Source: Candidatus Woesearchaeota archaeon
Lineage (GTDB): Archaea > Nanobdellota > Nanobdellia > SCGC-AAA011-G17 > PNOQ01
Reading direction: 5' to 3'
NCBI GenBank assembly: GCA_964481835.1
Contig: CAYZTT010000013.1
Coordinates: forward strand, 1-17,861
Length of the DNA stretch: 17,861 nt
A program made the translations under genes and the position numbers. Under the pieces are notes generated by a model. It ran no database searches and had not been told where the DNA came from. It saw only the letters and a list, made by a program, of their open reading frames with translations. Below are positions 1-16,960 of this stretch, in pieces. Each line of letters starts with the position of its first letter. Position 1 is the first letter of the stretch.

Positions 1-1
1 A

Positions 2-67
2 GAACGGGCAAAGCGATTGATTGATATGATGGTGCAGGAAGGACTTGACAGGGAGAACTGGAAATAA
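2..67 (+). CDS. 3' end of an upstream gene (partial; ...ERAKRLIDMMVQEGLDRENWK*)
   Basis: Open frame runs in from the window edge and ends at TAA 65-67. Product unknown. By position it could be the end of a packaging gene. Confidence 0.25.
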   Translation, partial: ERAKRLIDMMVQEGLDRENWK

Positions 68-234
68 TATGCAATCTAAAAGATTAGGTATGGCAGACAG
101 GAGATCAACCATAGGCGATAGAAGAATGTCAGCTATATTCCAACATAACGAAAGACGATGTCAGCAGAGAAGATCATTTGTAGGTGATAGGAGAACTTAC
201 AGGCCTTCTTACAGGACACCGGATTGGAGGTAGT

Positions 235-411
235 ATGAATTTCATACCAAAAACCAGACAGATTATTATAGGGTGTGTAGCCCTTATCAACATGGCCATA
301 GCTTTAGGTTGGATTGCCGGGCAGATTGAAGCAGCTCACGCAACACCGCTGATATCAATGTCAATCGGGGGATTTTTAACTTTATTGAAAGGTGATTCCG
401 ATGAACAATGA
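235..411 (+). CDS. small hydrophobic protein (58 aa, about 2 predicted TM segments); holin-like is possible
   Basis: ATG at 235 is preceded by GGAGG at 227-231. The hydrophobic stretches are IIIGCVALINMAIALGWIAG and LISMSIGGFLTLL. Its stop overlaps the start of the next gene. Confidence 0.35.
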   Translation: MNFIPKTRQIIIGCVALINMAIALGWIAGQIEAAHATPLISMSIGGFLTLLKGDSDEQ

Positions 412-970
412 ACTCTATAAAATTGCTCTGGATGCATGTAAGCAAGTGTATAAGCATAATATAGACTTGGGTACTACGGAGTATATGTATTCCAGATCAG
501 AGTATTTAAATAAGCCATTACAGGTGATTGCTGTTGCCGGTACAAACGAGGGTTTGGATTGGGTTAAGAATTTAGATGTTCGTGATATACAAGGCATTAA
601 GAGGAGTGGTGTTACAGCTGCAAATGAAATGCTGGGGGATTTGAATTGGAAAAGGTGGATTGATCCAAATATTCCTATTTTAATTACAGGACATTCAAAA
701 GGAACCGCAACTGCGGTTGCTTATATGAAGCTTTATGGGGCTGATTATTGTGTTTTATTTAATCCTGTCCGGTGTTTAAGCAGATCCCGAGATAATACCA
801 TGAAAAATACCACAATGTTTCTTGACAAAGAGGATGTGGTATCAAAGTTAGCATGGTTAAGTTTTAAACTGCCAAAATGTAAAATAATTAAGAAACCCAG
901 AGATGCGAGACCATGGTGGGATATAAAAACAAATCACGGCTTATCCTCTTGGAATGAGATTATTGGATAA
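401..970 (+). CDS. lipase class 3 family alpha/beta hydrolase (compact, about 190 aa)
   Basis: Lipase_3-type motifs are present: VIAVAGTNEGLDWVKNLDV (like vaFRGT...nW..Dl) and the nucleophile elbow ITGHSKGTA (like GHSLGG). Downstream Asp (FLDKEDVV) and His (TNHGLSSW) are placed to complete a Ser-Asp-His triad. The likely start is ATG 401 inside the GTG-401 track call, with RBS AAAGGTGA. Confidence 0.55.
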   Translation: MNNELYKIALDACKQVYKHNIDLGTTEYMYSRSEYLNKPLQVIAVAGTNEGLDWVKNLDVRDIQGIKRSGVTAANEMLGDLNWKRWIDPNIPILITGHSKGTATAVAYMKLYGADYCVLFNPVRCLSRSRDNTMKNTTMFLDKEDVVSKLAWLSFKLPKCKIIKKPRDARPWWDIKTNHGLSSWNEIIG

Positions 971-984
971 AAGGAGATCTTTAA

Positions 985-2376
985 ATGGCAAAAGATGAAG
1001 ATATAAGACACATAGTCAAGACATTAGGGGCTATATCCCAAAGGATGAAATACGCAGAGACGTTAGGGGAGACTTATGGCGGAGATAGGGATCTATATCA
1101 GGCATTGGGATACAAAACAAATTTAGAATATAAGGATTATTATCAAAAGTTTAAAAGAGGAGATATTGCTAAAGTAATAATCTCAAAACCGGTTAATGCC
1201 GTATGGGGAAATCCACCAACCCTAAGTGAGGGAGATAAGGATGTTGTAGATACAGATGTTTCCAGTTTAAAAAACCAATGGTTAGCTCTTGTTAAAAACC
1301 ATAATTTATATTCTCAGTTAATAAGATTAGATAAGTTATTGGGATTGGGGACTTTTGCTATTTTATTATTTGGATTTGATGATTCTACTGATTTTAGTAC
1401 TCCTTTGAATGAGGAAAATGCGGAGCTGTTGTATATTCAACCGTATGGTCAGGATAATGTTAATGTTCTTACCATGGAGACAAAAGTTACGGATGCCAGA
1501 TATGGAATGCCTTTAATGTATCAATTGCAAATTCCAAATCCAACTTCGAATACTAAAAATATAAGCATCAATGTTCACCATTCCCGGGTTCTTCATGTAA
1601 TTGAGGACCCATTGGAGAATCCCGTTTATGGAACTCCCAGATTAGAAGCACTATATAATCGGTTGGAGGATTTACAAAAACTATTGGGTGGTAGTGCAGA
1701 GATGTTCTGGAGGGGTGCCAGACCCGGGTATGCAGCACAGGCAGATTCAGATGCTTCATTTGGCTCAATAGATGCTGATTCTATGAGGGAGCAATTTGAT
1801 GAGTTTGAACATAATTTAAGAAGATGGTTAACTGTTCAGGGCGTTAATATAAGTCCCTTAGCTCCTCAAGTAGAATCTCCAAAAGATCATATAGATGCTC
1901 AAATAATGATGATTTCTATTGTAACTGGTATTCCAAAAAGAATATTAACTGGTTCTGAAAGAGGGGAACTAGCAAGTACACAGGATGAGAAAGTTTGGAA
2001 TGTCCTGATAAAAGATCGGATGACCACCTTTGCAGAACCCCAGATTCTAAGACCCCTTATTGACAAACTCATCAGTTGTAATGTTTTAACCACCAAAGAA
2101 GATGATTATCTCTTGACATGGCCTAAAATGTCTGCCATGGGAGAAAAAGAGAAGGCAGATGTAACCAAAACAAGATCCCAAGCAATTGCTGAATATTTAA
2201 AAACTCCGGGCGGAGAAATGCTTGTTCCTCCTGAAATATGGTTAAGGGATGAGTTTGGGTATAGTGAAAATCAGATTAAACAAATACAGGAGATTGTTGG
2301 AGAAATAAAGGTGGCAGAGGATTTAGAAGAAGAGCTAGATCAGATAATTCCTGAAGGAGACAATCTTGTTGAATAA
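985..2376 (+). CDS. phage portal protein
   Basis: A 463-aa protein directly upstream of, and overlapping, a Mu-F-like head morphogenesis gene. This is the canonical portal position and size. It has an acidic C-terminus and an AAGGAG RBS. Confidence 0.6.
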   Translation: MAKDEDIRHIVKTLGAISQRMKYAETLGETYGGDRDLYQALGYKTNLEYKDYYQKFKRGDIAKVIISKPVNAVWGNPPTLSEGDKDVVDTDVSSLKNQWLALVKNHNLYSQLIRLDKLLGLGTFAILLFGFDDSTDFSTPLNEENAELLYIQPYGQDNVNVLTMETKVTDARYGMPLMYQLQIPNPTSNTKNISINVHHSRVLHVIEDPLENPVYGTPRLEALYNRLEDLQKLLGGSAEMFWRGARPGYAAQADSDASFGSIDADSMREQFDEFEHNLRRWLTVQGVNISPLAPQVESPKDHIDAQIMMISIVTGIPKRILTGSERGELASTQDEKVWNVLIKDRMTTFAEPQILRPLIDKLISCNVLTTKEDDYLLTWPKMSAMGEKEKADVTKTRSQAIAEYLKTPGGEMLVPPEIWLRDEFGYSENQIKQIQEIVGEIKVAEDLEEELDQIIPEGDNLVE

Positions 2377-3268
2377 TATAAATACAATGTTTCGGGTTGA
2401 TCCCACGAGAACAATGACTATAAGGAATAGATTTTGTTCCCAGATGTCTAAGAGATTTAGACAATTAAAAGGAGAAATCCGTAAATCCATTGTAGAGAAT
2501 GATTGTTTTGCTTTAAGAGAATTGAGATTGAATGAGCCTTTAGGGAGAAGGCAATATGCTTTTGAGCGAGATCCCGCTAAAATTGCTTTATTCTTAGAAT
2601 GGTTGCAAAAACAAATTGACAATAATATATTAGAACTGTATCATGGGAGTCAATTGGGAGAAGGGATTGAGGGAGCTTGGACAAATATGTATATTAAAAC
2701 AGCATATGAAAAGGGAGTTGGTAGGAGTCATACAGAATTGGCTTCTGCTGGTTATTCTTTTACTGAAAGTGCAAGCATAGCTGCCTCCATGGGAAATATT
2801 CTTCATTTAGATCGGATTGGTATTTTATATACCAGAACTTTTACAGGTCTTAAGGGTATTACAGATGAGATGAGTAAGCAGATTGCTGAGATCTTAGCTG
2901 AAGGAATGTCTCAAGGAAGTGGGCCTTTGGAAATTGCTAAGAAAATAAATGATAGGGTTGATAAGATTGGCATAACAAGAGCTAAGGTTTTAGCCAGAAC
3001 AGAGATGATAAGAGCTCATCATCATGGCATGGTTATGGAGATGCGGAATTGGGGAGTTGTTGGTGTTCGTGTTTTAGCCGAGTGGTCTACCGCTGGAGAT
3101 AGCAGGGTTTGTAGTATTTGTAGACCTTTGGATGGTAAGCTTTTTACTTTAGACCGAGCAGAAGGCTTAATTCCCAGACATGCACAATGCAGATGCATGA
3201 TAATCCCATTAGATGTTACAGATAATGAAACTATGTTAAATAGACTAGGAGATAAAAATGCACATTAA
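2366..3268 (+). CDS. phage head morphogenesis protein, Mu gpF / SPP1 gp7 family
   Basis: The Phage_Mu_F-like signature RAKVLARTEMIRAHHHG...W...GDSRVCSICRPLDGKLF is present. It overlaps the portal stop by 11 nt. An alternative ATG lies at 2387. Confidence 0.75.
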   Translation: MLNNINTMFRVDPTRTMTIRNRFCSQMSKRFRQLKGEIRKSIVENDCFALRELRLNEPLGRRQYAFERDPAKIALFLEWLQKQIDNNILELYHGSQLGEGIEGAWTNMYIKTAYEKGVGRSHTELASAGYSFTESASIAASMGNILHLDRIGILYTRTFTGLKGITDEMSKQIAEILAEGMSQGSGPLEIAKKINDRVDKIGITRAKVLARTEMIRAHHHGMVMEMRNWGVVGVRVLAEWSTAGDSRVCSICRPLDGKLFTLDRAEGLIPRHAQCRCMIIPLDVTDNETMLNRLGDKNAH

Positions 3269-4715
3269 AACTATTTTAAACAGGATAGAACGAGGGAGAA
3301 CAGAAGAATTAAATGGAGAGAGTTATACGGTATATCCTGTAATTATGTTAACTGTTGGAGTTCACTCTGGTTCCGGTGGTCCTACTCTATATACAGAGGA
3401 AGAACTTCAGAATTTCTCTCAGACTTGGAATGGTGTTCCCGTAACATTACAGCACCCAGAATCAAATGGAAATCCTGTTAGTGCTAATTCTCCTGAGATT
3501 TATGAGTCTCAGGTATTGGGAACTGTTTTTAATGTACAATATTCAGATGGAAAATTAAAAGCAGAAATTTGGTTAAATAATAATGATCTGGAGACACTTG
3601 ATCCGGATTTGAAAGGCAGATTGTTAAGCGGAGAGAAGTTAGAAGTAAGTACAGGGCTATATAGTGAAGAAGATACCACTGCTGGTACTTTTAATAATGA
3701 AGAGTATACTTCTATTGCAAGAAATATCAGACCAGACCATTTGGCTTTACTTCCCGGGGAGATTGGAGCTTGTTCATGGGAAGATGGTTGTGGTGTTCGG
3801 TCAAATAAAAAAGGAGGTGACATGATAAGGAGAAAGAAAACAAGCAAAAATGAAAAGAAATGGGATGAGTTTTTTGTTAATTCAGAAGAATCATTTACTA
3901 TCAATGAGCTCGATTATACAAAGATTGTAGATCTTTTGAGTTCAAAGATAGATTCTATGGATGTACGGGGGGAGAAGATAAATTACCTATCCCGTGTATT
4001 TTCGGACCATGTCATTTATCGGATTCACTATAGGGATTCAGAAACTCCTAATAGGATGGTAAAGCGAAATTACCGGATTGAAAATGATGCTGTAGTGTGG
4101 ACTTCTGAGCCAATTAATGTTATGGAACAAGTAACATATACAGAAATCCATAATAATATAGAAACAAAAACAAATGAAAAGGAGAAAGGAATGGAAAAAG
4201 AAAAGGTAAAAACAATGAGGGAGTGCTGCCCAGATAAGGTGAATGAGCTGATCTCCAACAATGCCAATTTTACAGAAGAGAATAGAGAAAGTCTTCTGGA
4301 CATGACCGAAGATGGTTTTGCTTTGACTATTAATGTTGCCAAGGATGTGGACTCTACGGAAGAGAACGATCTTACTGAGAATGCAGAAAAAGAAGAAACT
4401 CAAGAGAATGTAGAAGTAAATACCATGGATGATCTTCTTGCCAATGCTGCCCCGGAACTGAGAGAGTCTATTGAGTATGGGCAGAAGATTCTTTCTGAGA
4501 AGAAAGCAAAACTCATTGATACTATCAAAGCCAATAAGGGAAATTCTTTTTCGGATGAGGAACTTTCGGGCTTTAAGATGGATTTCCTTGAGAAACTGGT
4601 TAAAATGGCCCCTGCTCCAAAAGCCAATTATGCTTTGAATCAGGGAAGTTCTTTTGCAGAAGATAAGGATATAGAACCGCTTCCCATATCAAATAGCTGG
4701 GGAGATGAAGAGTAA
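3258..4715 (+). CDS. putative scaffolding / prohead core protein (DUF2213-like N-terminal domain plus Glu/Lys-rich C-terminal region)
   Basis: It lies between the head morphogenesis and capsid genes. The C-terminal half is low-complexity E/K-rich with predicted helices (ETKTNEKEKGMEKEKVK..., EENDLTENAEKEETQEN), which is typical of scaffold proteins. The N-terminal domain resembles the DUF2213 family that co-occurs with DUF2184 capsids. Confidence 0.45.
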   Translation: MHIKTILNRIERGRTEELNGESYTVYPVIMLTVGVHSGSGGPTLYTEEELQNFSQTWNGVPVTLQHPESNGNPVSANSPEIYESQVLGTVFNVQYSDGKLKAEIWLNNNDLETLDPDLKGRLLSGEKLEVSTGLYSEEDTTAGTFNNEEYTSIARNIRPDHLALLPGEIGACSWEDGCGVRSNKKGGDMIRRKKTSKNEKKWDEFFVNSEESFTINELDYTKIVDLLSSKIDSMDVRGEKINYLSRVFSDHVIYRIHYRDSETPNRMVKRNYRIENDAVVWTSEPINVMEQVTYTEIHNNIETKTNEKEKGMEKEKVKTMRECCPDKVNELISNNANFTEENRESLLDMTEDGFALTINVAKDVDSTEENDLTENAEKEETQENVEVNTMDDLLANAAPELRESIEYGQKILSEKKAKLIDTIKANKGNSFSDEELSGFKMDFLEKLVKMAPAPKANYALNQGSSFAEDKDIEPLPISNSWGDEE

Positions 4716-4740
4716 TTTAAAATTAAATCAGTTGTAAAGA

Positions 4741-4749
4741 TGTATAATT
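4741..4749 (+). promoter_or_regulatory. candidate extended -10 element (TGTATAAT) upstream of the decoration and capsid genes
   Basis: TGnTATAAT at 4741-4749 lies in a 56-nt AT-rich intergenic gap 23 nt upstream of the ATG at 4772. No well-spaced -35 element is present. Confidence 0.2.
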
Positions 4750-4771
4750 TATAAAACAGGAGGAGGAAAAA

Positions 4772-5275
4772 ATGGCTGAAAATTCAATTATTGTAAGACA
4801 AGGACAGGCACAGAGAGTTGAGCTGGAGAAGATCCCAGCTGCTGCGTTTTATCCCGGTCATCTGGTGGAGTTAACCTCTGCTGATAGGGTGCAGAAGCAC
4901 AGTACCGCAGGGGGGAATATTACACCGGCTTTATTTGCTATTGAGGATGAGAATCAGGGAAAGGACATTGATGATGCTTTTGGTACATCAGGTCGTGCTG
5001 TCTGCTGGATTCCTCAGGCTGGAGATTGGGTCCTTGGTGTATTGGCTGACGGCGAAACCGTGGTTATTGGTGATAAACTGGAAAGTGGTGGTGATGGTAC
5101 ACTTAAGAAGCATGTTTCTGATACCGCAGACTCTGATGATCCCGTTACTGTTTACCCAAATCAGATTGTGGGGATTGCCATGGAAGCGTTGGACCTTTCT
5201 GATTCCAGTGGCGGAGAATCTGTAAACACATTTGATGGTGGATATGATCAACGTCTTTGGCTCATGATCGTGTAA
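4772..5275 (+). CDS. small capsid-associated protein (decoration/cement-like, DUF2190/gpD-like)
   Basis: A 167-aa protein immediately upstream of the major capsid gene, with a strong RBS AGGAGGAGG. Its size and position match the decoration proteins that pair with DUF2184 capsids. The C-terminus is Ser/Asp-rich. Confidence 0.4.
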   Translation: MAENSIIVRQGQAQRVELEKIPAAAFYPGHLVELTSADRVQKHSTAGGNITPALFAIEDENQGKDIDDAFGTSGRAVCWIPQAGDWVLGVLADGETVVIGDKLESGGDGTLKKHVSDTADSDDPVTVYPNQIVGIAMEALDLSDSSGGESVNTFDGGYDQRLWLMIV

Positions 5276-5315
5276 TTTAATATATATTTCAATTATATAA
5301 GGAGGAAATATAAAA

Positions 5316-6401
5316 ATGGATATGGAAACAAATGTAACTTATGTTGATCCAGAGGGAGGTTCTTTTTCTGATCCTGAAATCGGGGCGAAGCTTTCAGGTG
5401 GTTTTAGTGTCAATCAACTGAGACCTTTTATTGTAAATGGAAAAGCTTATGTAAACAGACCCATTGATAACAAAGGCAATATGAAAGTTGTTCCTTTTGT
5501 TGCCAATAACGTGGTTCATAATGCTGTTCTTCAAAGGGATGAGTGGATTGAGATTGATCGTGTTGTTCAGAAAATTGCAAGGGAGAGGCTGGTTGGTGCA
5601 GCAGATCTCCTTACCAGAGGACTTACTTATAATTTAACCAATCCCATGGGAAAGACTGTTCTTGAATATCAGGACATGAATGATCCGGGAGAAGCAAACA
5701 TGGATATGGATGCTGCGACTCAGCACAAAAATGATAGACCAGTATTTGAAACCAAATACTTACCTATCCCGATTATCCATTCGGATTTTACCATTGCCCA
5801 GCGTGTTTTGGAAGCTTCCAGAACCCATGGTGACCCCATTGATACTACAATGGCAGAAGCCTGTACTCGCAGAGTTGCAGAGAAGGTTGAAGATATGATC
5901 TTTACCAATACCAGTTTTACTTATGGTGGTGGTTCTATCAGATCATATATATCTGATACTAATAAGAATACTGTAACACTGAGTACCAACTGGGATGCCA
6001 GCAGTAAAACCGGAGCACAGATTGTTGATGATGTTATTGCCATGAAACAGGCCATGATTGATGCCAAACACTATGGTCCTTTTGTAATGTACATTCCTAC
6101 CAGTTATGAGACAGTTCTGGATGATGATTATGTTTCTGGTTATCCAAAAACAATCAGGGAAAGAATACTGGAGATTTCTGGGGTAGACAGTATTAAAGTT
6201 GCTGACAGGCTCGCTGCCGATACTGTTGTTATGGTAGAAATGTCTTCCAGTACTGTTCGTCTGGTAAATGGATTTGCTCCTACTGTTCTTCAGTGGAGTA
6301 CACAGGGAGGTCTGATGCATCATTTTAAGGTAATGGCAATTCAGGTTCTTCAGATCAGAGCAGATCAGGATGGCAATAGCGGTCTCTGCGTATTGTCGTA
6401 A
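5316..6401 (+). CDS. major capsid protein (HK97 fold, DUF2184 / encapsulin-like family)
   Basis: A 361-aa protein in the capsid position with RBS AAGGAGG. Blocks such as EWIEIDRVVQKIARERLVGAADL, PIPIIHSDF, LEASR and DTTMAEACTRRVAEKVEDMIF match the conserved DUF2184 pattern as I remember it. Confidence 0.65.
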   Translation: MDMETNVTYVDPEGGSFSDPEIGAKLSGGFSVNQLRPFIVNGKAYVNRPIDNKGNMKVVPFVANNVVHNAVLQRDEWIEIDRVVQKIARERLVGAADLLTRGLTYNLTNPMGKTVLEYQDMNDPGEANMDMDAATQHKNDRPVFETKYLPIPIIHSDFTIAQRVLEASRTHGDPIDTTMAEACTRRVAEKVEDMIFTNTSFTYGGGSIRSYISDTNKNTVTLSTNWDASSKTGAQIVDDVIAMKQAMIDAKHYGPFVMYIPTSYETVLDDDYVSGYPKTIRERILEISGVDSIKVADRLAADTVVMVEMSSSTVRLVNGFAPTVLQWSTQGGLMHHFKVMAIQVLQIRADQDGNSGLCVLS

Positions 6402-6461
6402 TTCAATCTGAATATAGATGGTAATCAACCCATTTAAATTTTAAATTAAGGAGTTAATCAC

Positions 6462-6875
6462 ATGATAAGAAAAAGTAAAATTAAAGAAATTGAAAAAGGT
6501 GTTGAACGCCCCAGTAGACCTGAGAAATTTAAAGGAATGCTCCGTTATAAGAAAATCAGTGGTGGAGTGCATCGACATTCAAATGGGCAGATTGTAAGGA
6601 AAGGTGAAATCTTGTATGCCCATCCAGAAGAGCTGAGTCCTATTCTTGCTGTGGGTTTTAAATGTCTGGATGAGGCAATTAAAGAAGCACAGGGAATCCA
6701 ATTGGGCATTAAAGATCGTGGAAACGGTTGGTATGATGTTATTAATAAGAAAACAGGAGAAGTCCTTAATGACTCTGCCCTAAGAGCAAAAGATGCTCGG
6801 CAATTCATTACTGGGGATGAAGATGTTGTAACCCCGGAAGAAGTGGAAGAAGATTTTGAAGAAGATGAGGATTAA
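6462..6875 (+). CDS. hypothetical protein with a basic N-terminus and a highly acidic C-terminal tail (TPEEVEEDFEEDED)
   Basis: RBS AAGGAG 8 nt upstream of the start. It lies between the capsid gene and the modification cluster. I recognise no family. Confidence 0.5.
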   Translation: MIRKSKIKEIEKGVERPSRPEKFKGMLRYKKISGGVHRHSNGQIVRKGEILYAHPEELSPILAVGFKCLDEAIKEAQGIQLGIKDRGNGWYDVINKKTGEVLNDSALRAKDARQFITGDEDVVTPEEVEEDFEEDED

Positions 6876-6883
6876 AACTCCTT

Positions 6884-7636
6884 ATGAAATGGAAAGTTCC
6901 TAAAATATGGAAAGGGGAATGTTGGATTATAGGCGGAGGTTCCTCCGTTGCTGAACAATTTAACATTCCTGACACCCTTATCCCCGAATCCAAAGAAGAG
7001 TTTAGAGCTTTTGGAGACTATCTAACATATATTCACAAGAAAAGATGTATTGGTGTTAATGTTTCTGCTTTTTTGGGGGATTGGGTTGATGTAGCTTATT
7101 GGGGTGATTCCGATACATATACTGATTATAGGGCTTGGTTTGATCAATATGCTGGTTTAAAAATATCCAGTGCCGGTAAGTTTAGTGATGCTTCTTTTAA
7201 AGAAATAAAACATCTCTACAAAAGTCTAAGTGGGGGTTTAACAAAACGTAAAAATCAAGTATCTTGGGTTTGTAAAAACTCAGGTGCAAGTGCGATTGAC
7301 TTAGCTCATAAATTGGGGGCTACTGTTATTTATGTACTTGGCATTGATATGTATCTCCATCCTGAAAAAAGGATTCATTGGCACAAAGGATACCCCGACA
7401 AAACAAAAACCCCAACGATGAAACAATTAAAGCAAGGCAAGAAACATCCCAGAAGGATTGTCTCTAAAAAGTCTCAGGAGAATCTTTTTAAAAAACAACT
7501 ACAGGGCTGGAGCCGAATTGCTAAAGATTGCGAAGCAAAAGGGATAAAAGTAATAAATGTAAATCCCAAAAGTAGAGTTGATGTGTTTCCTAAAATGTCT
7601 TTAAAGGAGATTATTGAGTCTGATGAAGAGGTTTAA
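6884..7636 (+). CDS. DUF115 (MptE / Maf 'motility accessory factor'-like) protein; putative nucleotide-sugar or nonulosonate transferase
   Basis: The N-terminal motif ECWIIGGGSSV resembles the GxGPSL motif of DUF115. The core KNSGASAIDLAHKLGATVIYVLGIDMY matches the DUF115 consensus nGGSvanaAlnLAvllGakkIvLiGqDla. Confidence 0.5.
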   Translation: MKWKVPKIWKGECWIIGGGSSVAEQFNIPDTLIPESKEEFRAFGDYLTYIHKKRCIGVNVSAFLGDWVDVAYWGDSDTYTDYRAWFDQYAGLKISSAGKFSDASFKEIKHLYKSLSGGLTKRKNQVSWVCKNSGASAIDLAHKLGATVIYVLGIDMYLHPEKRIHWHKGYPDKTKTPTMKQLKQGKKHPRRIVSKKSQENLFKKQLQGWSRIAKDCEAKGIKVINVNPKSRVDVFPKMSLKEIIESDEEV

Positions 7637-8120
7637 TTGGCTAGATAAGCAAATCAAAAAAAGAAAGATCTCAATCATGTGCCAAGTAGGTACCGGAAAA
7701 GGACGAACTTCTGGGTATATATTAAACCACAATCCCCAGTTAATCTTACATGAGGTTGCCTATTGCCCCGATGATGGTTCTGGTCAATCTTCTTTTTTTG
7801 AGCATCGAAGGGTTTGGAAGAGAAGGGTTTCCCCTTTCTTAGATCGTATTAAAGTTCACGAATTAAAAAGCGAAGAAGCTCATCGAAACATCGAAGACCA
7901 TTTTTTTGATTGTGTTTTTATAGATGCAGATCCTTCTTATGAAATGTGTTTATTGGATATTCAAAATTGGTATCCCAAAGTAAAAAAGGGGGGATTGATT
8001 TGTGGTCATGATTTTGATCATCCTCGTTTTCCCGGAGTAAGAAAAGCTGTAGAAGAGTTTTTTAAAGACTCCTTTGTAGATGCTTCCAGACATGATTGGA
8101 TATGGTGGGCAAAAGTATGA
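7623..8120 (+). CDS. class I SAM-dependent methyltransferase (Methyltransf_24 / TylF-CmcI-like)
   Basis: Motif I is QVGTGKG. The VFIDADPSYE motif is characteristic of the Methyltransf_24 family. The track calls a start at TTG 7614; the in-frame ATG 7623 is more likely. It overlaps the upstream gene. Confidence 0.6.
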   Translation: MKRFNWLDKQIKKRKISIMCQVGTGKGRTSGYILNHNPQLILHEVAYCPDDGSGQSSFFEHRRVWKRRVSPFLDRIKVHELKSEEAHRNIEDHFFDCVFIDADPSYEMCLLDIQNWYPKVKKGGLICGHDFDHPRFPGVRKAVEEFFKDSFVDASRHDWIWWAKV

Positions 8121-8695
8121 AACTCGATAAGCAAATACTTGTATTGCCAAAGGAAAAATATCTCTTCTTTTTGAGTTCTAAATGTGCTTCTTCCTCTGTA
8201 CGCAGAATGGCAATATTTGATCTGAAGTACGGAGAACCTCTAATCTATATAACCAATTTAAAAGCCCTGCAAATGTATATGGATTTTAAATGGATAATGA
8301 TTGTTAGATCTCCTTGGGATAGGATAAGAAGTCTTTGGAAAGATAAAGTATTTAGGCACGTACATAAGGAGTTCCGCAGCCTTGGATTTACGAGAGGTGA
8401 ATCTTTTTCTGAATTTGGGAAGAGGTTTCATGGTATTTCGGATCTTTTAAAATGTGGCAGTCATTTATGGCCTATGTTTACTTTGTTTCCTTATTTTGAA
8501 AAAGGAAGAAATACTCTTTTACTCGATTTAAAAGATTTAAGAAAATGGCCTATAGAGTTGCCTTTCTTGAGGAAAGAGAATCAGTCAAAGATAATTGTTC
8601 CAGAAGAAAAAGGAAAGCTTGGATCTCGTCAATCTAAGATCTTAAGAGAAAAGTATATTATGGATTTTGATCATTATGATTCCTTCAACTCCTAA
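8117..8695 (+). CDS. sulfotransferase, Sulfotransfer_2 (carbohydrate sulfotransferase)-like
   Basis: The 3'-PB motif IVRSPWDRIRSLWKDK matches vRdPfeRlvSaf. The N-terminal PKEKYLFFLSSKCASSSV resembles the 5'-PSB PKxGS/TT loop. The ATG at 8117 overlaps the upstream TGA (ATGA), so the track's 8096 start is probably too far upstream. Confidence 0.5.
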   Translation: MKLDKQILVLPKEKYLFFLSSKCASSSVRRMAIFDLKYGEPLIYITNLKALQMYMDFKWIMIVRSPWDRIRSLWKDKVFRHVHKEFRSLGFTRGESFSEFGKRFHGISDLLKCGSHLWPMFTLFPYFEKGRNTLLLDLKDLRKWPIELPFLRKENQSKIIVPEEKGKLGSRQSKILREKYIMDFDHYDSFNS

Positions 8696-9344
8696 ATATA
8701 AAGAAGTTACCGTTGCCTGTGTTTTGTGGGTTGGCGATTTTCGCAAGCGAGGGTATACTGCATTGTGGGTGCAGAGGTTAAAGAATATGGTGGAAAAGAG
8801 TCTTTCTATTCCACATAACTTTATTTGCCTTTCTAATGTTAATATCCCAGATGTAAATTGTATTCCTTTAAAACATGATTATCCCGGATGGTGGTCTAAA
8901 ATTGAATTGTTTAGAAATGATATTCCGGGGGATCGTGTGTTGTCCTTAGACTTGGATTTAATTCTTTTGAAGGACATTGCCCCTTTTATTGAAATAGATA
9001 CCCCTATGGCGATCTGTAGGGCTTTTGGGAAGCCTTCTATGGGAAGAGGTACTATCCATGGATATAATTCATCTGTTATGGTCTTTGATAAGGGAGAGGG
9101 AGGTGAATTATATTCAAGTTTTGGTGAATACGCAATGAGGAGATTTAGGGGGGATCAGGATTATATTAAATTTGATATACCCTATCTTCCTACTTTTCCA
9201 AAAGGGTGGGTAATAAAAATAAGACAATGCATAGCTGGGAGAAAATGTGTTCCCGGAAGGGATGTTAAAATTCTCTTGTGTATGCCTTACAAAAACGATG
9301 TGGCTATAAGAAAGTTTCCTTGGGTGGGAGAGATATGGAAGTAA
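8676..9344 (+). CDS. GT-A-fold DxD glycosyltransferase-like protein (GT8-like), paralog 1
   Basis: The motif WWSKIELF...DRVLSLDLDLILLKDIAPF resembles the GT8 Y.RL...d..kvlYLD.D.lv.dl..L motif. It is paralogous to the next gene (VTVACVLWVGDF / VNIICLYWRGKD; LDLDLIL / CDLDVVI). The likely start is ATG 8676 inside the TTG-8667 call. Confidence 0.4.
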   Translation: MIPSTPKYKEVTVACVLWVGDFRKRGYTALWVQRLKNMVEKSLSIPHNFICLSNVNIPDVNCIPLKHDYPGWWSKIELFRNDIPGDRVLSLDLDLILLKDIAPFIEIDTPMAICRAFGKPSMGRGTIHGYNSSVMVFDKGEGGELYSSFGEYAMRRFRGDQDYIKFDIPYLPTFPKGWVIKIRQCIAGRKCVPGRDVKILLCMPYKNDVAIRKFPWVGEIWK

Positions 9345-10021
9345 AACCTGTAAATATCATTTGTTTATATTGGAGAGGCAAAGACAGGCCGGGATGGGAA
9401 GATACCTTTTTAGGAATGGAATATGTATTTAAGCTCTATAAAGGTTTTGAAAGAAACTGTACAATTCCGTTTAAATTCTTTTGTTTAATTGAGAATGTTC
9501 CTACTTTTACTTTTCCGGGTATTAAATTTCTCAAGTTAGATTCCCCAAGCTGGAGAGGTTGTTTGCCTAAATATTCAGTTTTTAATCCTTCTTACAATTT
9601 TAAGGGAAGGGTCTTTGTATGCGATTTGGATGTAGTAATTACTGGAAATGTAGATGATATTTTATCTTATGATGGAGAGTTTGCTACAAGGAGCACCTTT
9701 AGAGGTAAAAAAGAATCTGGGGGAGATTTGGTTGCTTTTGAGGGGGGAACATATCAATGGATTTGGGATGAGTTTAAAAACGAAACCCAACGGGTGGTTG
9801 ATTTTACAAAAGGACGAGAACGCTGGGTATACCGATATGATAGACGTATGAGAAAGCTTAAGTTCTTACAGGATTTGTTTCCAGATCAAATTTACAGTTA
9901 TAAAAATCATTGTAACAGAGGAAGGGGTCTTCCTGAAAATGCAAGAATGGTATCTTGCCATGGAAATCCCAGACCCCATGAAATCAGAGATGATTGGGTA
10001 AAAGAGCACTGGAGATTATAA
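9335..10021 (+). CDS. GT-A-fold DxD glycosyltransferase-like protein, paralog 2
   Basis: The DxD block GRVFVCDLDVVITGNVDDI is collinear with the upstream paralog. The likely start is ATG 9335 inside the GTG-9278 call, with GGGAG 4 nt upstream. Its TAA stop overlaps the ATG of the next gene (TAATG). Confidence 0.4.
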   Translation: MEVKPVNIICLYWRGKDRPGWEDTFLGMEYVFKLYKGFERNCTIPFKFFCLIENVPTFTFPGIKFLKLDSPSWRGCLPKYSVFNPSYNFKGRVFVCDLDVVITGNVDDILSYDGEFATRSTFRGKKESGGDLVAFEGGTYQWIWDEFKNETQRVVDFTKGRERWVYRYDRRMRKLKFLQDLFPDQIYSYKNHCNRGRGLPENARMVSCHGNPRPHEIRDDWVKEHWRL

Positions 10022-10383
10022 TGGTTTATCTTATTACCGGAAAATCAAATGCTGGAAAAACAACATTGGCTTATAAAATGGCAATCGAGAATGGGGGTAT
10101 TGTTATTGATGCTGATGAAGTTAGAAAGATATTCCCTTCTGATTTTTCCGATAATGGCAGAGAAGAGCATATAGTCCGTATGGCAAAAATGGCAGCCTTA
10201 TTGGAAGCTCAGCAAATTGTATACATTGCAGCTATTATGCCAAAAAAAGAATGGAGAGATTTGGCTCGTTCTTATTTTAAAGATTCAGTTTTGATTTATT
10301 TAAAAGGGGGTGTTCTTTGGGAGGGTACTGAATATGAAGAACCCCAAAAACAAGAGTTAGAAAGGAAATCTAATCATGATTAA
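10021..10383 (+). CDS. APS-kinase (CysC)-like P-loop kinase, compact form lacking the lid segment
   Basis: The P-loop is ITGKSNAGKTTLA. IDADEVRK followed by FSDNGREEHIVRMAKMAALLEAQQIVYIAAIMPKKEWR aligns residue-for-residue in pattern with CysC LDGDNVRHGL...[39 protein letters not shown]. C-terminal TEYEEPQKQEL resembles DPYEAPENPEL. The approximately 25-aa RDPKGLYKKAR lid is absent. The start at ATG 10021 forms TAATG with the upstream stop, and GGAGA lies 5 nt upstream. Confidence 0.55.
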   Translation: MVYLITGKSNAGKTTLAYKMAIENGGIVIDADEVRKIFPSDFSDNGREEHIVRMAKMAALLEAQQIVYIAAIMPKKEWRDLARSYFKDSVLIYLKGGVLWEGTEYEEPQKQELERKSNHD

Positions 10384-11092
10384 AGACTACTCAGAGAAAC
10401 CGATTATTATTGTAGGGGCTGCAAGATCCGGTACCAGTATGGTTGCAGCCTGTGTTCATTTATGTGGAGCTTGGAAGGGGGATACCGCAGGACCAAACCG
10501 ATATAACCAAAAAGGAATGTTTGAGAATTTGGAATTGAGGGAGAAGATAATCAAACCTTTATTACATGCTATGAATGCAGATAAAAAAGGTCAATTTCCC
10601 TTACCGGAAACAAAAGATATTATTATTCCTCATGATATTAAAGATTCTATCTTTAAAATAGTAAAAGGACAGGGCTGGACTCCTGATCTTCCATGGATGT
10701 GGAAATGTGCTAAAATGTCTCTGATGTGGCCTGTTTGGAATTATGCTTTTCCAGATAGTAAATGGATTATTGTAAGGAGAAAGACTCCGGATATTATCAA
10801 TTCTTGTATGAAAACAGGATTTATGAACGCATATGCTATTCCCAGAATTCAGAAAAAGGCAGGAGTATCCAGTGAAAAAGAAGGTTGGTTGCAGTGGGTA
10901 CGTAAGCATGAAGAAAAGTTCATAGAGATTATTCAAAGTGGTGTAAATGTTAAAGTTATATGGCCTGAAAGGATGATCAACTCGGATTATAGTCAACTTC
11001 AGGAAACAATTGAATGGTTAGGGTTGACTTGGGACCCCAAAAAGGTTTATGATTTCATTGAACCAAAACTCTGGAAAGCAAGGAGGGGATAA
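10376..11092 (+). CDS. sulfotransferase, Sulfotransfer_1/3-like (PAPS-dependent)
   Basis: The 5'-PSB motif PIIIVGAARSGTSMV is classic (IvGapRSGTT). The 3'-PB motif is WIIVRRKTPDIINS (vRdPrDvavS). The ATG overlaps the upstream stop (ATGATTAA). Confidence 0.6.
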   Translation: MIKDYSEKPIIIVGAARSGTSMVAACVHLCGAWKGDTAGPNRYNQKGMFENLELREKIIKPLLHAMNADKKGQFPLPETKDIIIPHDIKDSIFKIVKGQGWTPDLPWMWKCAKMSLMWPVWNYAFPDSKWIIVRRKTPDIINSCMKTGFMNAYAIPRIQKKAGVSSEKEGWLQWVRKHEEKFIEIIQSGVNVKVIWPERMINSDYSQLQETIEWLGLTWDPKKVYDFIEPKLWKARRG

Positions 11093-11454
11093 TGGCAAGA
11101 ACAACCGCAGCAGAGGTACAGCAGATTATTGATACAGAAGTCAGTACAACCATTATAGATGTTATGATTACCCCAGCAAACTTAGTTGTTACGTCTGAAT
11201 TAGGAGGAGAACTTTCTTCTGCTCTTCTTACTGAGATTGAAAAATGGCTTGCTGCACATCTAATAAAAATGTCATGGGAAAAAGATAAAGAAAGTGTTAA
11301 AATAGGAGAAGCAGAGGAGAAATACGCAAAGCTTGGTTTAAATCTGGATGGTAGTACATATGGGCAAACTGTGAAACTATTGGATACTACGGGTAAATTG
11401 GCTAATTTAGGAAAGAAAGAGGCTTCTATTACAGCAGTGGAATCTTTCGAATAG
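11092..11454 (+). CDS. head-tail connector / adaptor protein (gp6-like)
   Basis: A 120-aa protein in the first position after the head genes. The N-terminal pattern TAAEVQQII...EIEKWLAAHLI resembles gp6-like connector proteins. It is joined to the upstream gene by TAATG coupling. Confidence 0.5.
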   Translation: MARTTAAEVQQIIDTEVSTTIIDVMITPANLVVTSELGGELSSALLTEIEKWLAAHLIKMSWEKDKESVKIGEAEEKYAKLGLNLDGSTYGQTVKLLDTTGKLANLGKKEASITAVESFE

Positions 11455-11461
11455 AGGTAAT

Positions 11462-11818
11462 ATGGATATTACAAAATACCTAACTGATACAGCTGTTTTA
11501 TGGGCTAAAAGTGGTAAGACTGCTTATAATGAATTGACCTTTACAGCTGGAGCAGAGATTTCTGTAAGGTGGGAAGACCGACAAGAGATTTTTATAAGCT
11601 CTACAGGAAAAGAATTAATATCAGATGCAATTGTTTTTGTAGATCAGGATATTACACCGGATAGCTTTTTATATTTAGGGGAATTGGATGATTTAAGTGC
11701 AGAAGAAAAAGCCAATCCTAAATTAGAACAAAATGCATATGCCGTAAGAAGATTTGAGAAAATTAAAAATGTAGGTGGTAGAATTGTTCTAAGAAGGGTT
11801 CATTTGACCGGAGGTTAG
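11462..11818 (+). CDS. head closure / head-tail joining protein (putative)
   Basis: A 118-aa protein lying between the adaptor and an HK97-gp10-like gene. Confidence 0.4.
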   Translation: MDITKYLTDTAVLWAKSGKTAYNELTFTAGAEISVRWEDRQEIFISSTGKELISDAIVFVDQDITPDSFLYLGELDDLSAEEKANPKLEQNAYAVRRFEKIKNVGGRIVLRRVHLTGG

Positions 11819-11819
11819 G

Positions 11820-12320
11820 GTGTTAAAAAACAATATACGTGGATTAAATCAGGTCTTGCGTAACTTAAATAATGAAGTTAAGAAGATCAAAGGGAGAACC
11901 CTAAAGGGACTTATCCGTGGTGGTCTTATTGTTTTAAGAGATGTTGAATTGACAACACCTTTAACCCCGGTTGAGTTAGGCAATCTTAGAGCAAGTCGTT
12001 TTTTAGTAACTTCCAATCGTGGTGTCAGTATGGGGAGAAATCCTACTTTTAGAAACTCAAAAAAGAACAAAAAAGCAGCCCAATCAATGGGTAGAAACCA
12101 TCATGATGTATTGAGCGAAACTAAGGCATTGGCAAAAGCAACTGGGCAACCAACTGTTATTTTGGGTTTCAGTGCTAAATATGCAGCTCCAGTACATGAG
12201 AAAAGGAATGTTAAAAAATGGTCACGCCCCGGGTCCGGTCGTAAATTCTTTGAGATGGCTTTAGATAGGAATGTTAAAAATATCCTGAAAGTAATCAGGA
12301 AGGAGGCTAAAATAAAATGA
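11820..12320 (+). CDS. HK97 gp10-like neck / tail-completion protein
   Basis: GTG start with GGAGG 5 nt upstream. The N-terminal pattern (L..L...V.KI.GRTLKGLIRGGLIV..DV.L.TP) is typical of the HK97 gp10 family. Confidence 0.5.
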   Translation: MLKNNIRGLNQVLRNLNNEVKKIKGRTLKGLIRGGLIVLRDVELTTPLTPVELGNLRASRFLVTSNRGVSMGRNPTFRNSKKNKKAAQSMGRNHHDVLSETKALAKATGQPTVILGFSAKYAAPVHEKRNVKKWSRPGSGRKFFEMALDRNVKNILKVIRKEAKIK

Positions 12321-12715
12321 CAACAATCAATCCTCCAAGTACAGATATTAAAGATTTATTAGAAAGTTCCGATTGTGGGTTAAGTTTGGTTGCAGGGACC
12401 AATTTGTTTATAGGCATAACTCCAGTAACTCCAAATAATGTTACAATTTTAGTTGACTCAGGGGGATTAGATCAGTTAAGATATGGAATGGAAAGACCTA
12501 ATATACAGGTCTTAGTTAGAAACAATGATTATTTAACAGGATATGAGTTAATTAAAGATATTAAATATTACTTAAATGAGAAAAGAAACCTAATCCAAGG
12601 AGGAGCTCGTTATATTTGTATTTTGGCCCGTTCAGAGATTGCATATTTAGGATTAGATCCTAAAAACAGACATGAATGGTCTCTTAATTTTCAAATACAT
12701 AGAACTGTTAATTAA
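12317..12715 (+). CDS. tail terminator / tail completion protein (putative)
   Basis: A 132-aa protein immediately before the tail tube gene, with ATGA start/stop overlap. Confidence 0.4.
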   Translation: MTTINPPSTDIKDLLESSDCGLSLVAGTNLFIGITPVTPNNVTILVDSGGLDQLRYGMERPNIQVLVRNNDYLTGYELIKDIKYYLNEKRNLIQGGARYICILARSEIAYLGLDPKNRHEWSLNFQIHRTVN

Positions 12716-12735
12716 ATAAAAAGGAGGAATTAAAA

Positions 12736-13161
12736 ATGACAACAAATGCAGAATCGGGTGTAGGATCATTAATGCGATACTATACTGGGGCAGCTTGGGC
12801 TTCTCTTGGAGAAGTTACCAACATAACTGGACCCGGTATGTCCAGAGATACCCATGACGTTACCAGCTTGGCAAGTACCAACGGTTACAGGGAGTTTATT
12901 CCGGGCTTGAGAGATCCCGGTGCCTTGACCTTTACTATGTGGTTTAATCGAACAGATTATGATGCCATGAAGACATTGTTTGAGTCTGATACAATTACTG
13001 ACTTTGAATTGATATTGGACGATACTGAAAATACTACACTGGAGTTCAGTGGTTTTGTTACAGAAATGCCTTTAACTGTTCCAGATGGTCCCATAGCATG
13101 TGAGGTTACAATAAAGATTTCCGGTACTGTTACCGTTAATAGTGGGAGTGGAAGTGGATAA
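12736..13161 (+). CDS. major tail (tube) protein
   Basis: Strong RBS AAGGAGG. A 141-aa protein placed directly before the G/GT chaperone pair and the tape measure gene. It carries the motifs DVTSLASTNGYREFIPGLRDPGALTF. Confidence 0.55.
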   Translation: MTTNAESGVGSLMRYYTGAAWASLGEVTNITGPGMSRDTHDVTSLASTNGYREFIPGLRDPGALTFTMWFNRTDYDAMKTLFESDTITDFELILDDTENTTLEFSGFVTEMPLTVPDGPIACEVTIKISGTVTVNSGSGSG

Positions 13162-13222
13162 TACATAAGAATAACACAAGCCTAATCAGGGTTTTAATAT
13201 AACACATAAAGGAGATAATCAA

Positions 13223-13648
13223 ATGTCCAAAATAAACTATGAAAAGAGAGCAAAAGAATTAAGAAAACTAATCCTTGATGTACAGGATTTTCCGGTTGAA
13301 GAAGTTAAGGTTCCTGAATGGAACCTTCCTTTTCCTATTTATATTCGTACCATGTCTGCACAGGAGCGGGATGATTTTGAGTCCAGCCAGTTAGTTGATG
13401 ATGCTGAAGGCAATAAAATCCTATCATTGCAGAATTTACGAGCTTCTTTATTGGCTCGGGTTATTTGTGCTGATCCAGAAGGCAAACATCGTATTTTTAA
13501 CAGTGGGGATATTGAGGCTTTGGGTAATAAGTCTGTAGCTGCTGTGGACCGGTGTTTGGAAGTATCCCGTAAATTAAATGGAAGTACAGAAGAAGATGAA
13601 GAGAATTTAATAAAAAACTTCAAAGGCCGGGACGGAGATTCTGGCTAA
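13223..13648 (+). CDS. tail assembly chaperone (gpG-like)
   Basis: Acidic 141-aa protein. The gene ends just downstream of an A_AAA_AAC slippery heptamer. It sits directly upstream of a -1-frame ORF and the tape measure gene. Confidence 0.65.
   Translation: MSKINYEKRAKELRKLILDVQDFPVEEVKVPEWNLPFPIYIRTMSAQERDDFESSQLVDDAEGNKILSLQNLRASLLARVICADPEGKHRIFNSGDIEALGNKSVAAVDRCLEVSRKLNGSTEEDEENLIKNFKGRDGDSG
13612..13618 (+). promoter_or_regulatory. -1 programmed ribosomal frameshift slippery heptamer A_AAA_AAC (G/GT)
   Basis: Codons AUA|AAA|AAC are in the frame of 13223. The -1 frame opens at 13600 (TGA 13597-99 before it) and runs without a stop into the ORF at 13678-14103. Confidence 0.6.
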
Positions 13649-13677
13649 AACAAGCACGCAATGCTGGAGTATATAAC

Positions 13678-14103
13678 ATGGAAACCTTTTTATCTGGCAT
13701 ATCGGCAAAACAAGCAAAAGAGTGGGAATTATTTGCTGTAGAAGAACCAGCATTTGAGGACAAGGTAATTGTCCAGTTGGCTTTAATTGCTCATTTATTT
13801 GCAAACAGTTTCATTCAAAGAACAGATAAAAAGAAATGGTCCCTATCTGATTTTATTCCAGACTTTTCCAACAAACTTACAAGTAAAAATAAGCCTATAG
13901 ACTTAAAAAATAAGGTTTTTGGTATCTTGGGTACCCATGGAAACGATAAGGCAAAAGAAAGGGCTAAAAAACACTTTAAACGGCAAGATAAATCAAATAC
14001 AGAAGGAAAGATTCGAGGTACAGATGGTAAGTTATACAAGTATCGCATGGAGGAATTTGTAAAGGATAGAAAAACCTTACCAAAAAGATTGCGGAGGAAG
14101 TAA
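13678..14103 (+). CDS. tail assembly chaperone T-domain ORF (expressed as a gpGT-like fusion by -1 frameshift; an independent ATG is also present)
   Basis: This ORF is in the -1 frame relative to 13223-13648 and is open back to the slippery site. Its stop overlaps the tape measure start (TAATG). Confidence 0.55.
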   Translation: METFLSGISAKQAKEWELFAVEEPAFEDKVIVQLALIAHLFANSFIQRTDKKKWSLSDFIPDFSNKLTSKNKPIDLKNKVFGILGTHGNDKAKERAKKHFKRQDKSNTEGKIRGTDGKLYKYRMEEFVKDRKTLPKRLRRK

Positions 14104-16604: not shown

Positions 16605-16960
16605 TGGCAGCAGGAGATGCTTTTACATTAGTTCCAGAAGCAGTGGTGACATTGGAACCAGAATATAATACTGTTGAATCTCAAACAGAGTCTATGAAGA
16701 AAGAACACTATGAAATATCTTCAACTCCAGTTGAGAGATATCGTTTAATCTTTGAAGCATTGACTGATTCTGAAAGAGATACTTTATTAGACCATTTTAA
16801 AGATCAATCTGGAGGTTACTATGCTTTCTCGTGGCAATCTGTTCCAAACTATATAGGTTCTGGAGCAAATATTACAGGCAGATGGGTAAAGGGGAGTTTA
16901 ACAATGAATCCATTGAATCCTTATTGGAAATGTTCAATAGAATTTGAAAAGGAGAATTAA
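16604..16960 (+). CDS. minor tail protein, lambda gpM-like
   Basis: A 118-aa protein directly after the tape measure gene (TAATG coupling). HFKDQSGGYYAFSW and SIEFEKE parallel lambda gpM FLEEHGGWKSFLW and SAEFEQV. Confidence 0.55.
   Translation: MAAGDAFTLVPEAVVTLEPEYNTVESQTESMKKEHYEISSTPVERYRLIFEALTDSERDTLLDHFKDQSGGYYAFSWQSVPNYIGSGANITGRWVKGSLTMNPLNPYWKCSIEFEKEN

Follow-up and report, generated by a model that had tools for sequence, protein, structure and literature searches.

A single-domain DUF115/MptE-like – GT42-like putative glycosyltransferase encoded close to the capsid gene across a large lineage of phages

Glycosylation of phage virions has, to our knowledge, been documented essentially only in mycobacteriophages, where it blunts antibody recognition. 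According to the passages of PMC11600133 and PMC12619734 that cite Freeman 2023, the C-termini of mycobacteriophage capsid and tail-tube subunits are glycosylated by the products of glycosyltransferase (GT) and methyltransferase (MT) genes. Flagellins are O-glycosylated by Maf enzymes, which belong to a superfamily with two further structurally characterised branches: the GT42 enzymes Cst-I and Cst-II of Campylobacter jejuni, and MptE, the archaeal 6-hydroxymethyl-7,8-dihydropterin pyrophosphokinase. As far as we know, all characterised glycosyltransferases of the Maf/GT42 fold use a CMP-activated ulosonic acid. Here we analyse a gene at 6884..7636 on the forward strand of a 17,861-nucleotide stretch of DNA (the window; contig CAYZTT010000013.1, positions 1 to 17,861, deposited as Candidatus Woesearchaeota archaeon). 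Its product truly belongs to the DUF115/MptE-like – GT42-like superfamily, as a very divergent stand-alone protein that lies outside the current Pfam model, and it is predicted to be a glycosyltransferase. We propose, at a probability of roughly 0.55, that this enzyme is expressed late and attaches the first O-linked sugar to surface proteins of the virion, the donor probably being a CMP-activated acidic sugar supplied by the host.

The initial annotation had called the product a DUF115 protein. Taken literally, this did not hold: scanned alone, the window protein gave no match at E ≤ 1 to PF01973 (DUF115 / MptE-like / Maf_flag10; gathering threshold 34.6 bits) and none to the GT42 family PF06002. 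Single-sequence searches of Pfam, NCBIfam and the PDB returned only noise, as which we discarded matches to Ribosomal_L13, a TnpB-related model and haemagglutinin-neuraminidase. At the level of the superfamily the identification is sound, through the relatives of the protein, a PHROG match and the fold, and no unrelated family competes for it. The window protein matched phrog_4603 ("alpha-2,3-sialyltransferase") at E 4.4e-25. Its 32 homologues, with 30-65% identity, are all unnamed metagenomic proteins. We aligned 31 of them (alignment A1) and built a broader profile of 60 sequences (A2). When each member of A1 was scanned singly, 28 of the 31 matched PF01973 below threshold (best E 1.7e-5), as did ten of ten more distant relatives (E 1e-6 to 1e-2, all below 34.6 bits). 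Scores among the relatives ran from 16 to 29 bits with one exception, no other family recurred among them, and several family members carry a PF01973 flag in precomputed annotation. The exception, P0125, is an 885-aa protein with three tandem DUF115-like domains and a GT34-like domain. It scored 66.4 bits with PF01973, above threshold, and matched the A1 profile at E 4e-57, and therefore joins the two families; against the PDB, phmmer found no match for it.

Searched against the PDB, the A2 profile placed MptE (8sd5) first at E 0.004, Cst-II (1ro7, E 0.067) and its variants next at E 0.07-0.1, and Maf (5mu5) further down at E 1.3. These sequence matches are individually non-significant, and they include all three structurally characterised branches of the superfamily. 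The family itself is large: 7230 representative clusters match at E ≤ 1e-3, and 400 still do so at E ≤ 1e-30. Of 273 members that we fetched, 39 (roughly one in seven) exceed 300 aa, and in these long proteins the DUF115-like domain stands N-terminal to a methyltransferase, GT2, GT9, GT34 or TupA-type ATP-grasp domain.

The fold points the same way. An AlphaFold (AF2) model built on A1 had a pLDDT of 95.2 and a pTM of 0.92, with one domain spanning the whole protein. Foldseek gave a single significant match in the PDB, the Maf glycosyltransferase of Magnetospirillum magneticum (5mu5; E 4.4e-4, probability 1.00, TM 0.51 on the query, TMt 0.23), and in a viral structure library (BFVD) the model matched phage proteins annotated as MptE-like or DUF115. 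As modelled, the product has the fold of the Maf central domain (modified GT-A / sialyltransferase-like).

The family conserves G17-G18-G19-x-S21, N59, D75, W128, N132-S133-G134, G153-x-D155, H165-W-H167 and N225; D75 and D155 are invariant and S133 nearly so. In C. botulinum Maf (CbMaf), D272, S334 and D357 are required for activity, and E324 and D415 are the M. magneticum Maf equivalents of CbMaf catalytic residues (10.1101/2020.06.03.131540). The spacing of D75, S133 and D155 is 58 and 22 residues, that of the CbMaf residues 62 and 23. An hhalign comparison of A2 with Cst-II, whose sequence we confirmed to be identical to 1ro7, covered 202 collinear columns (P 1.5e-4, probability 25%). It equates GGGSS17-21 with Cst-II GNGPS8-12, N59 with N31, N132-S133-G134 with T131-S132-G133, and G153-I-D155-M-Y157 with G152-I-D154-F-Y156; D75 adjoins N51. 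The spacing and the Cst-II alignment suggest that D75, S133 and D155 correspond to the Maf catalytic residues.

The position of the gene is conserved to an unusual degree, well past what chance would allow. We gathered 27 loci via the DUF115-like protein itself, and their genes run in the order portal, (Mu F), DUF2213, decoration, capsid, a small open reading frame (ORF), DUF115-like gene, variable cassette, Sulfotransfer_3-like gene and connectors. A second sampling, an IMG/VR scan seeded by the capsid protein alone, removed the ascertainment bias of the first. Among the 63 capsid-seeded loci that extend 1.3 kb or more beyond the capsid gene, 62 carry the DUF115-like gene right after the capsid gene and small ORF, and 61 carry the small ORF between the two. 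From the DUF115-like gene to the first connector gene the distance is -3 to 8379 bp, with a median of 3069 (n=48). The usual last gene of the cassette is a sulfotransferase, found in 44 of the 48 loci with both cassette ends. Downstream GT and MT genes number from none to about 10 per locus, and in four loci (L072, L088, L007 and L027) the DUF115-like gene is the sole enzyme gene between capsid and connectors. Because it encodes the only near-constant enzyme of a cassette whose downstream GT and MT genes vary, it is the best candidate for the initiating transferase, and the earlier proposal that it attaches the first sugar gains from this comparison.

In the window, the gene is an ATG-started ORF of 250 aa, exactly where the initial annotation had placed it and, as stated there, inside a phage structural operon. 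The same start Met occurs in all 31 aligned homologues, and GAGGA lies 11 nt 5' of the ATG. The upstream gene stops at 6875 and the next gene overlaps the 3' end. This short gap, the GAGGA and the overlap indicate one cistron of a tightly packed operon. On the opposite strand over 6884..7636, the sole ORF of at least 60 aa is a 61-aa TTG ORF at 6808..6993. Pfam and PHROGs scans show that the window is a siphovirus-type structural module. Its 5' part encodes, in order, a portal (PF06381), a Mu-F-like protein, a DUF2213/Pa193_gp24-like protein, a decoration protein and a DUF6260/linocin-type capsid protein. After the capsid gene come a 137-aa ORF, the DUF115-like gene and six modification genes, and the 3' part encodes connectors, tail terminator, tail tube, chaperones, tape measure and distal tail proteins. 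The DUF115-like gene thus heads the cassette, as had been claimed, but does not directly follow the capsid gene, since the 137-aa ORF intervenes. The genes around it are as follows.

5316..6401, + strand, major capsid protein (DUF6260/linocin HK97-like), anchoring the conserved order on its upstream side
6462..6875, + strand, small partner ORF of 137 aa, between capsid gene and DUF115-like gene
6884..7636, + strand, DUF115/MptE-like – GT42-like putative glycosyltransferase of 250 aa, assigned by family profile, PHROG and model
7614..8120, + strand, class I SAM methyltransferase (Methyltransf_24), overlapping the end of the DUF115-like gene; its start in public contig records is the position equivalent to 7623
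8096..8695, + strand, weak Sulfotransfer_2-like protein (E 0.006, below threshold)
8667..9344, + strand, glycosyltransferase (phrog_1962 E 1e-18; weak GT8)
9278..10021, + strand, glycosyltransferase (phrog_1962 E 2e-21)
9994..10383, + strand, short APS-kinase-like P-loop kinase of 129 aa (PF01583 E 3.6e-12), a putative source of PAPS
10376..11092, + strand, Sulfotransfer_3-like sulfotransferase (E 2.6e-5; 25 bits against a threshold of 27)
11092..11454, + strand, first head-tail connector gene, marking where the cassette ends downstream in every related locus

Promoter and terminator patterns in the window showed no excess over shuffled expectation, an Rfam scan of the window found no match, and a megablast of the whole window against cultured phages found none either. 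Directly 5' of the portal gene, at 392-970, lies a 192-aa ORF with a GHSKG nucleophile-elbow motif and a weak class-3 lipase match (E 0.007, below threshold).

The homologous genome contigs are phage-like and binned into taxonomically scattered metagenome-assembled genomes, and no host could be assigned from them. One locus, L008 (GCA_900198705.1, FZPS01000013.1 708667-729371), has a copy of the head module from portal to DUF115-like gene inside a 2.4-Mb contig. The genes that come after it do not look phage-derived; the copy may be what is left of a prophage and could reveal a host. Two other loci carry unusual genes near the head module. L007 (1389-3782) encodes a 797-aa portal with topoisomerase IB domains (PF21338 and PF01028, from precomputed annotation), an unusual portal-Top1B fusion, and L006 (1-1392) encodes a 929-aa protein 5' of the head genes with a weak intein-splicing match, which may come from an intein-containing terminase or portal-region gene.

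Two sites on virion proteins are candidate acceptors by sequence.

4772..5275, + strand, head decoration protein gene (phrog_766)
5192..5221, + strand, Ser-rich loop DLSDSSGGES, aa 141-150 of the decoration protein, a candidate O-glycosylation acceptor
12736..13161, + strand, tail tube protein gene
13138..13158, + strand, C-terminal tail NSGSGSG, aa 135-141 of the tail tube protein, a candidate acceptor

The decoration loop lies about 24 residues from the C-terminus and recurs across the lineage as D[LM]S[GD]SSG. The tail-tube Ser/Gly tail (VNSGSGS in related loci) extends beyond the part that is homologous to tail tube proteins of cultured phages. A simple Ser/Thr/Gly motif was present in 62% of decoration, 69% of tail tube and 52% of capsid proteins, against at most 22% of portal, neck and enzyme proteins; 62% of the long tape-measure proteins also have it. 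A tblastn search of cultured phages with the decoration protein found no match. The case for the two sites as acceptors is circumstantial.

The small ORF at 6462..6875 may be part of the same system. It matched nothing in Pfam or PHROG. Its family has a basic N-terminus and two conserved modules, W+K.GGGS.R..G+.IKPG..F.A and GWYDV..GK.LN...L+.K.A, joined by a variable linker, and close relatives add an acidic C-terminal tail. A hidden Markov model (HMM) of the family found a copy between the capsid and DUF115-like genes in essentially every locus. In one 355-aa protein, P0065, the small ORF and the DUF115-like domain form a single polypeptide (HMM E 6e-25), and the N-terminal module was found by HMM inside two large multi-domain cassette enzymes.

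L015:9922-13176, aa 796-871, small-ORF N-terminal module inside a cassette enzyme
L017:8684-11902, aa 6-66, small-ORF N-terminal module inside a cassette enzyme

The P0065 fusion of adjacent genes could be a metagenomic sequencing artefact; the internal copies in L015 and L017 cannot. A further enzyme in L027, which by eye seemed to have a fused C-terminal motif of the small ORF, was not supported by the HMM and was dropped. A structure model of the small ORF reached a pLDDT of 67 and gave no significant fold match, with SH3-like hits that were non-significant. The Ser/Thr/Gly motif is present in 0 of 62 small ORFs, so that the protein looks more like a targeting or specificity module than like an acceptor, and it is probably such a factor for the DUF115-like enzyme. 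There is a functional precedent in GlfM, a small cis-encoded specificity factor that serves Maf-2 (10.1101/2023.12.03.569772). The phage partner recalls the GlfM–Maf-2 pair, but it is predicted to be beta-rich and not a four-helix bundle.

The rest of the cassette bears on the sugar and its elaboration. We took Pfam censuses of 55 and 144 cassette ORFs (199 in all), of which the 25 commonest families were listed, and scanned 20 ORFs singly. The families include sulfotransferases, many methyltransferases, GT2, GT8, GT11, GT34, GT47 and GT1, radical SAM proteins, sugar 4,6-dehydratases, epimerases and APS kinases. The initial annotation had suggested pseudaminic or legionaminic acid (Pse/Leg), both nonulosonic acids, as the sugar transferred. 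This found no backing in the genes: no NeuB-type synthase or CMP-transferase (CTP_transf_3), and no Kdo or other CMP-sugar biosynthesis gene, occurs in the window, among the 25 commonest families of the 199 ORFs or in the 20 ORFs scanned singly, a negative that leaves room for rare occurrences of nonulosonate or Kdo genes and for genes elsewhere in the phage genomes. Some cassettes carry nucleotide-sugar biosynthesis genes, among them those of L069, L044 (15189-16202) and L061. In L069 (14957-17154), a UDP-GlcNAc 2-epimerase-family protein adjoins a PseB/CapE-type 4,6-dehydratase, a pair that could feed a 6-deoxy-HexNAc or a nonulosonate pathway, and L061 (14131-15078) has a GDP-mannose 4,6-dehydratase (Gmd). 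Two matches may be further hints of CMP-activated acidic sugars in these cassettes: a fusion of GT2 with GT29, the eukaryote-type sialyltransferase family, in L057:12068-14221 (GT29 37.5 bits, above threshold), and a weak KpsC/KpsS-type (beta-Kdo transferase) match in L085:12478-14595.

The operon in the window also contains a sulfation module, composed of the APS-kinase-like gene, one clear sulfotransferase-like gene and one weak one; in other loci, APS-kinase genes account for 4 of 144 cassette ORFs. Sulfation may be directed at the glycan or at protein directly. We take PF13469 to include tyrosylprotein sulfotransferases as well, and the decoration proteins have a conserved Tyr (GYD/GYN) directly after the Ser-rich loop.

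Taken together, we favour the following course of events. The enzyme would be co-transcribed late with the head and tail genes, and the protein of the small ORF would direct it to its substrates. It would transfer the first sugar to Ser or Thr of exposed virion proteins, with the decoration loop and the tail-tube tail as candidate sites. Maf enzymes accept CMP-Kdo besides nonulosonates (10.1101/2020.06.03.131540). Since characterised glycosyltransferases of the fold use CMP-ulosonic acids, the donor is most likely CMP-Kdo or a CMP-nonulosonate, that is, a CMP-activated acidic keto-sugar, and since no phage biosynthesis genes for it were seen in the window or among the cassette genes surveyed, this would be drawn from the host pool. 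The variable downstream enzymes would then extend, methylate and sulfate the glycan; for this the window encodes two GTs, one methyltransferase, a pair of sulfotransferase-like proteins and the APS-kinase-like protein.

Besides the missing direct Pfam matches, the individually non-significant PDB matches and the lack of donor-sugar genes already described, several observations weigh against this proposal. The fold alone does not fix the chemistry, because the MptE branch is a kinase and not a GT, and GT42 enzymes normally cap glycans and do not prime proteins. The column of His188, the catalytic base of Cst-II, is variable in the family (H/Q/F/L), with Q-L in the window protein (in KKQLQGW, starting at residue 203). 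Arg129, which binds the carboxylate in Cst-II, falls in a gap, as an insertion relative to the family, and no invariant basic residue that might bind the sugar carboxylate is evident in the family. One locus, L092 (7247-8386), has the small ORF and the sulfotransferase with neither a DUF115-like gene nor a GT. The small ORF is thus not dedicated to the DUF115-like gene, and the sulfotransferase may not need the DUF115-like product. Tandem duplicates of the DUF115-like domain occur as two separate genes in several loci, namely L013 (6962-8702; here the two copies flank the small ORF), L068 and L094; together with the three-domain P0125, the duplicates argue against a single unique priming step. 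As for the acceptors, relatives that lack the DUF115-like gene are almost nonexistent, which leaves the motif without a gene-less contrast, and the tail tubes of three cultured phages without the cassette offer only a weak one (that of Shpa ends in AAAGGGS).

A more specific form of the proposal covers the lineage as a whole. These tailed phages, numerous and mostly from aquatic sources, would possess a dedicated system for protein O-glycosylation, in which a Maf-like transferase of minimal size and a small targeting protein prime the Ser-rich motifs SGSSG and NSGSGSG of the decoration and tail tube proteins with a host CMP-activated acidic sugar (Kdo or a nonulosonic acid). Extension, methylation and sulfation of the glycan would follow, and a polyanionic, sulfated coat would result. 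We regard this extended version as doubtful.

Among the alternatives, the one that survives best is that the enzyme acts late, as a sialyltransferase-like cap or chain extender that places an acidic sugar on a glycan begun by a different GT, of phage or host origin. Cst-I and Cst-II are generally known to cap lipooligosaccharide glycans, the PHROG carries the name of a sialyltransferase, the tandem copies and the triple-domain protein suggest successive additions, and the L007 module encodes, at another place, a separate Gly_transf_sug GT. We nevertheless consider it unlikely, given that no other enzyme is near-universal in the cassette and that four loci have no second enzyme there for it to follow. 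Moreover, Maf enzymes of the same fold glycosylate Ser/Thr directly (10.1101/2020.06.03.131540).

Somewhat less likely still is that the cassette modifies a host surface polysaccharide (lipopolysaccharide or capsule) or another non-virion target, resulting in receptor masking or superinfection exclusion. Serotype conversion is common for phage GTs, according to a review cited in the passages of PMC12619734 on this subject; GT2, GT9, GT11, GT47, the sulfotransferases and the sugar dehydratases resemble the contents of polysaccharide loci, and a homologue in Caulobacter jumbo phages adjoins tail fibre and lysis genes. However, the position between capsid and connector genes, fixed in 62 of 63 diverged head modules, is what one expects of functions tied to the virion and is atypical for accessory ('moron') genes, the Pfam censuses turned up no flippase, polymerase or membrane-anchored initiating transferase families, and Ser/Gly motifs are conserved on exposed virion proteins.

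Least probable of the enzymatic alternatives is an MptE-like, ATP-dependent (pyro)phosphokinase or other nucleotide-dependent enzyme whose substrate would be a small molecule or a sugar, and which might, for instance, supply the sulfotransferases with a substrate. In its favour, MptE ranks first among the PDB sequences matched by the family profile, with a shared GxGPS nucleotide-binding motif, Pfam named PF01973 after it, and the gene co-occurs near-constantly with a sulfotransferase and sometimes with an APS kinase. Against it, the MptE match spans only about 35 residues; over the whole domain the model matches Maf, and in its C-terminal half the family aligns to Cst-II. The domains fused to it are of GT and MT type, no genes of a pterin or folate pathway were seen nearby, and the probable counterparts of the residues essential in Maf GTs are kept. 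DNA hypermodification as the target was rejected, given the head-module position, the sulfotransferase neighbours and the lack of nucleotide-modifying enzymes.

The fold and probable chemistry of the enzyme are already known. What is new is the minimal architecture, the near-obligatory capsid-adjacent position in a large phage lineage, the conserved small partner and the association with a sulfation module; in the literature searched, no paper ties MptE-like or DUF115 proteins to phage structural modules. If the family does glycosylate virions, sugar-coated and possibly sulfated phage particles would be common in nature, with a bearing on virion surface charge, adsorption, stability, adherence to mucus and particles, and immune recognition. 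The Maf/GT42 fold would be extended to a new class of acceptor, the enzyme being the first with this fold to prime proteins other than those of flagella, and an O-glycosyltransferase for proteins with a minimal size of 250 aa might find use in glyco-engineering. The sulfated phage particle would likewise be a first. Two cultured carriers of a homologue, the Caulobacter phages CcrSC and CcrBL9, make the proposal experimentally tractable.

How does the locus compare with known systems? Mycobacteriophage cassettes (Che8, Corndog/cluster O, Myrna), so far as they are described in the relevant passages of PMC11600133 and PMC12619734, place GT and O-methyltransferase genes with virion structural genes, as here: the window likewise has GT and methyltransferase genes inside a virion structural operon. 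In those passages the mycobacteriophage enzymes are conventional GTs plus an O-methyltransferase, with no mention of a DUF115-like initiator, a small partner or a sulfotransferase/APS-kinase module. The Ser/Gly C-terminus of the tail tube parallels the C-terminal glycans reported there on capsid and tail tube.

A true homologue is found in the Caulobacter jumbo phages CcrSC, CcrBL9, C1, C2, RB23, J4 and BL47, as gp516, annotated 'alpha-2,3-sialyltransferase' (tblastn E 4e-7; phmmer E 4e-11). It has 199 aa and lacks an insertion of about 23 residues at positions 24-47. In the CcrSC cassette (L028, 118481-122967), the gp516 gene comes first, followed by genes for three hypothetical proteins, one methyltransferase and one more hypothetical protein, which by eye resembles a heptosyltransferase. 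This cassette also adjoins structural genes, but it follows the tail-fibre genes and precedes the lysis genes and does not follow the capsid gene, and it has no small partner ORF or sulfotransferase.

MptE shares with the phage family the N-terminal GxGPS and the helix-strand-GxD motifs. Its match is restricted to about 35 plus about 20 residues, however, and the window has no pterin or folate pathway context; by contrast, the glycan context of the phage gene and the GT fusions point to a transferase. The GT42 enzymes Cst-I and Cst-II (1ro7, 2p2v, 9c08) are likewise single-domain proteins, of about 250-290 aa, and the Cst-II motifs GxGPS, N31, TSG/NSG and GID(F/M)Y are collinear with the phage family. 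They sialylate lipooligosaccharide and not protein, and PF06002, His188 and Arg129 have no counterpart in the phage enzyme, which on its sequence is not a GT42 member.

The closest structural relative is Maf, including besides 5mu5 the C. botulinum and Geobacillus kaustophilus enzymes. The catalytic-domain fold is shared and weak PF01973 similarity runs throughout the phage family. Nevertheless, the "Maf-like" label of the initial annotation does not fit the architecture. Maf proteins have about 600-650 aa and three domains (the two copies of 5mu5 in the PDB have 632-666 residues), whereas the phage enzyme is a single domain of 250 aa without the N- and C-terminal (TPR/helical) domains; these flanking domains bind flagellin in Maf, and the phage enzyme has no such acceptor-binding domains. 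Maf genes lie in flagellar glycosylation islands, the phage gene in a head module without linked Pse/Leg genes. The phage protein is thus not a Maf in architecture but a stand-alone catalytic domain. Maf enzymes O-glycosylate flagellin, a polymerising structural protein, and the same kind of acceptor is predicted for the phage enzyme.

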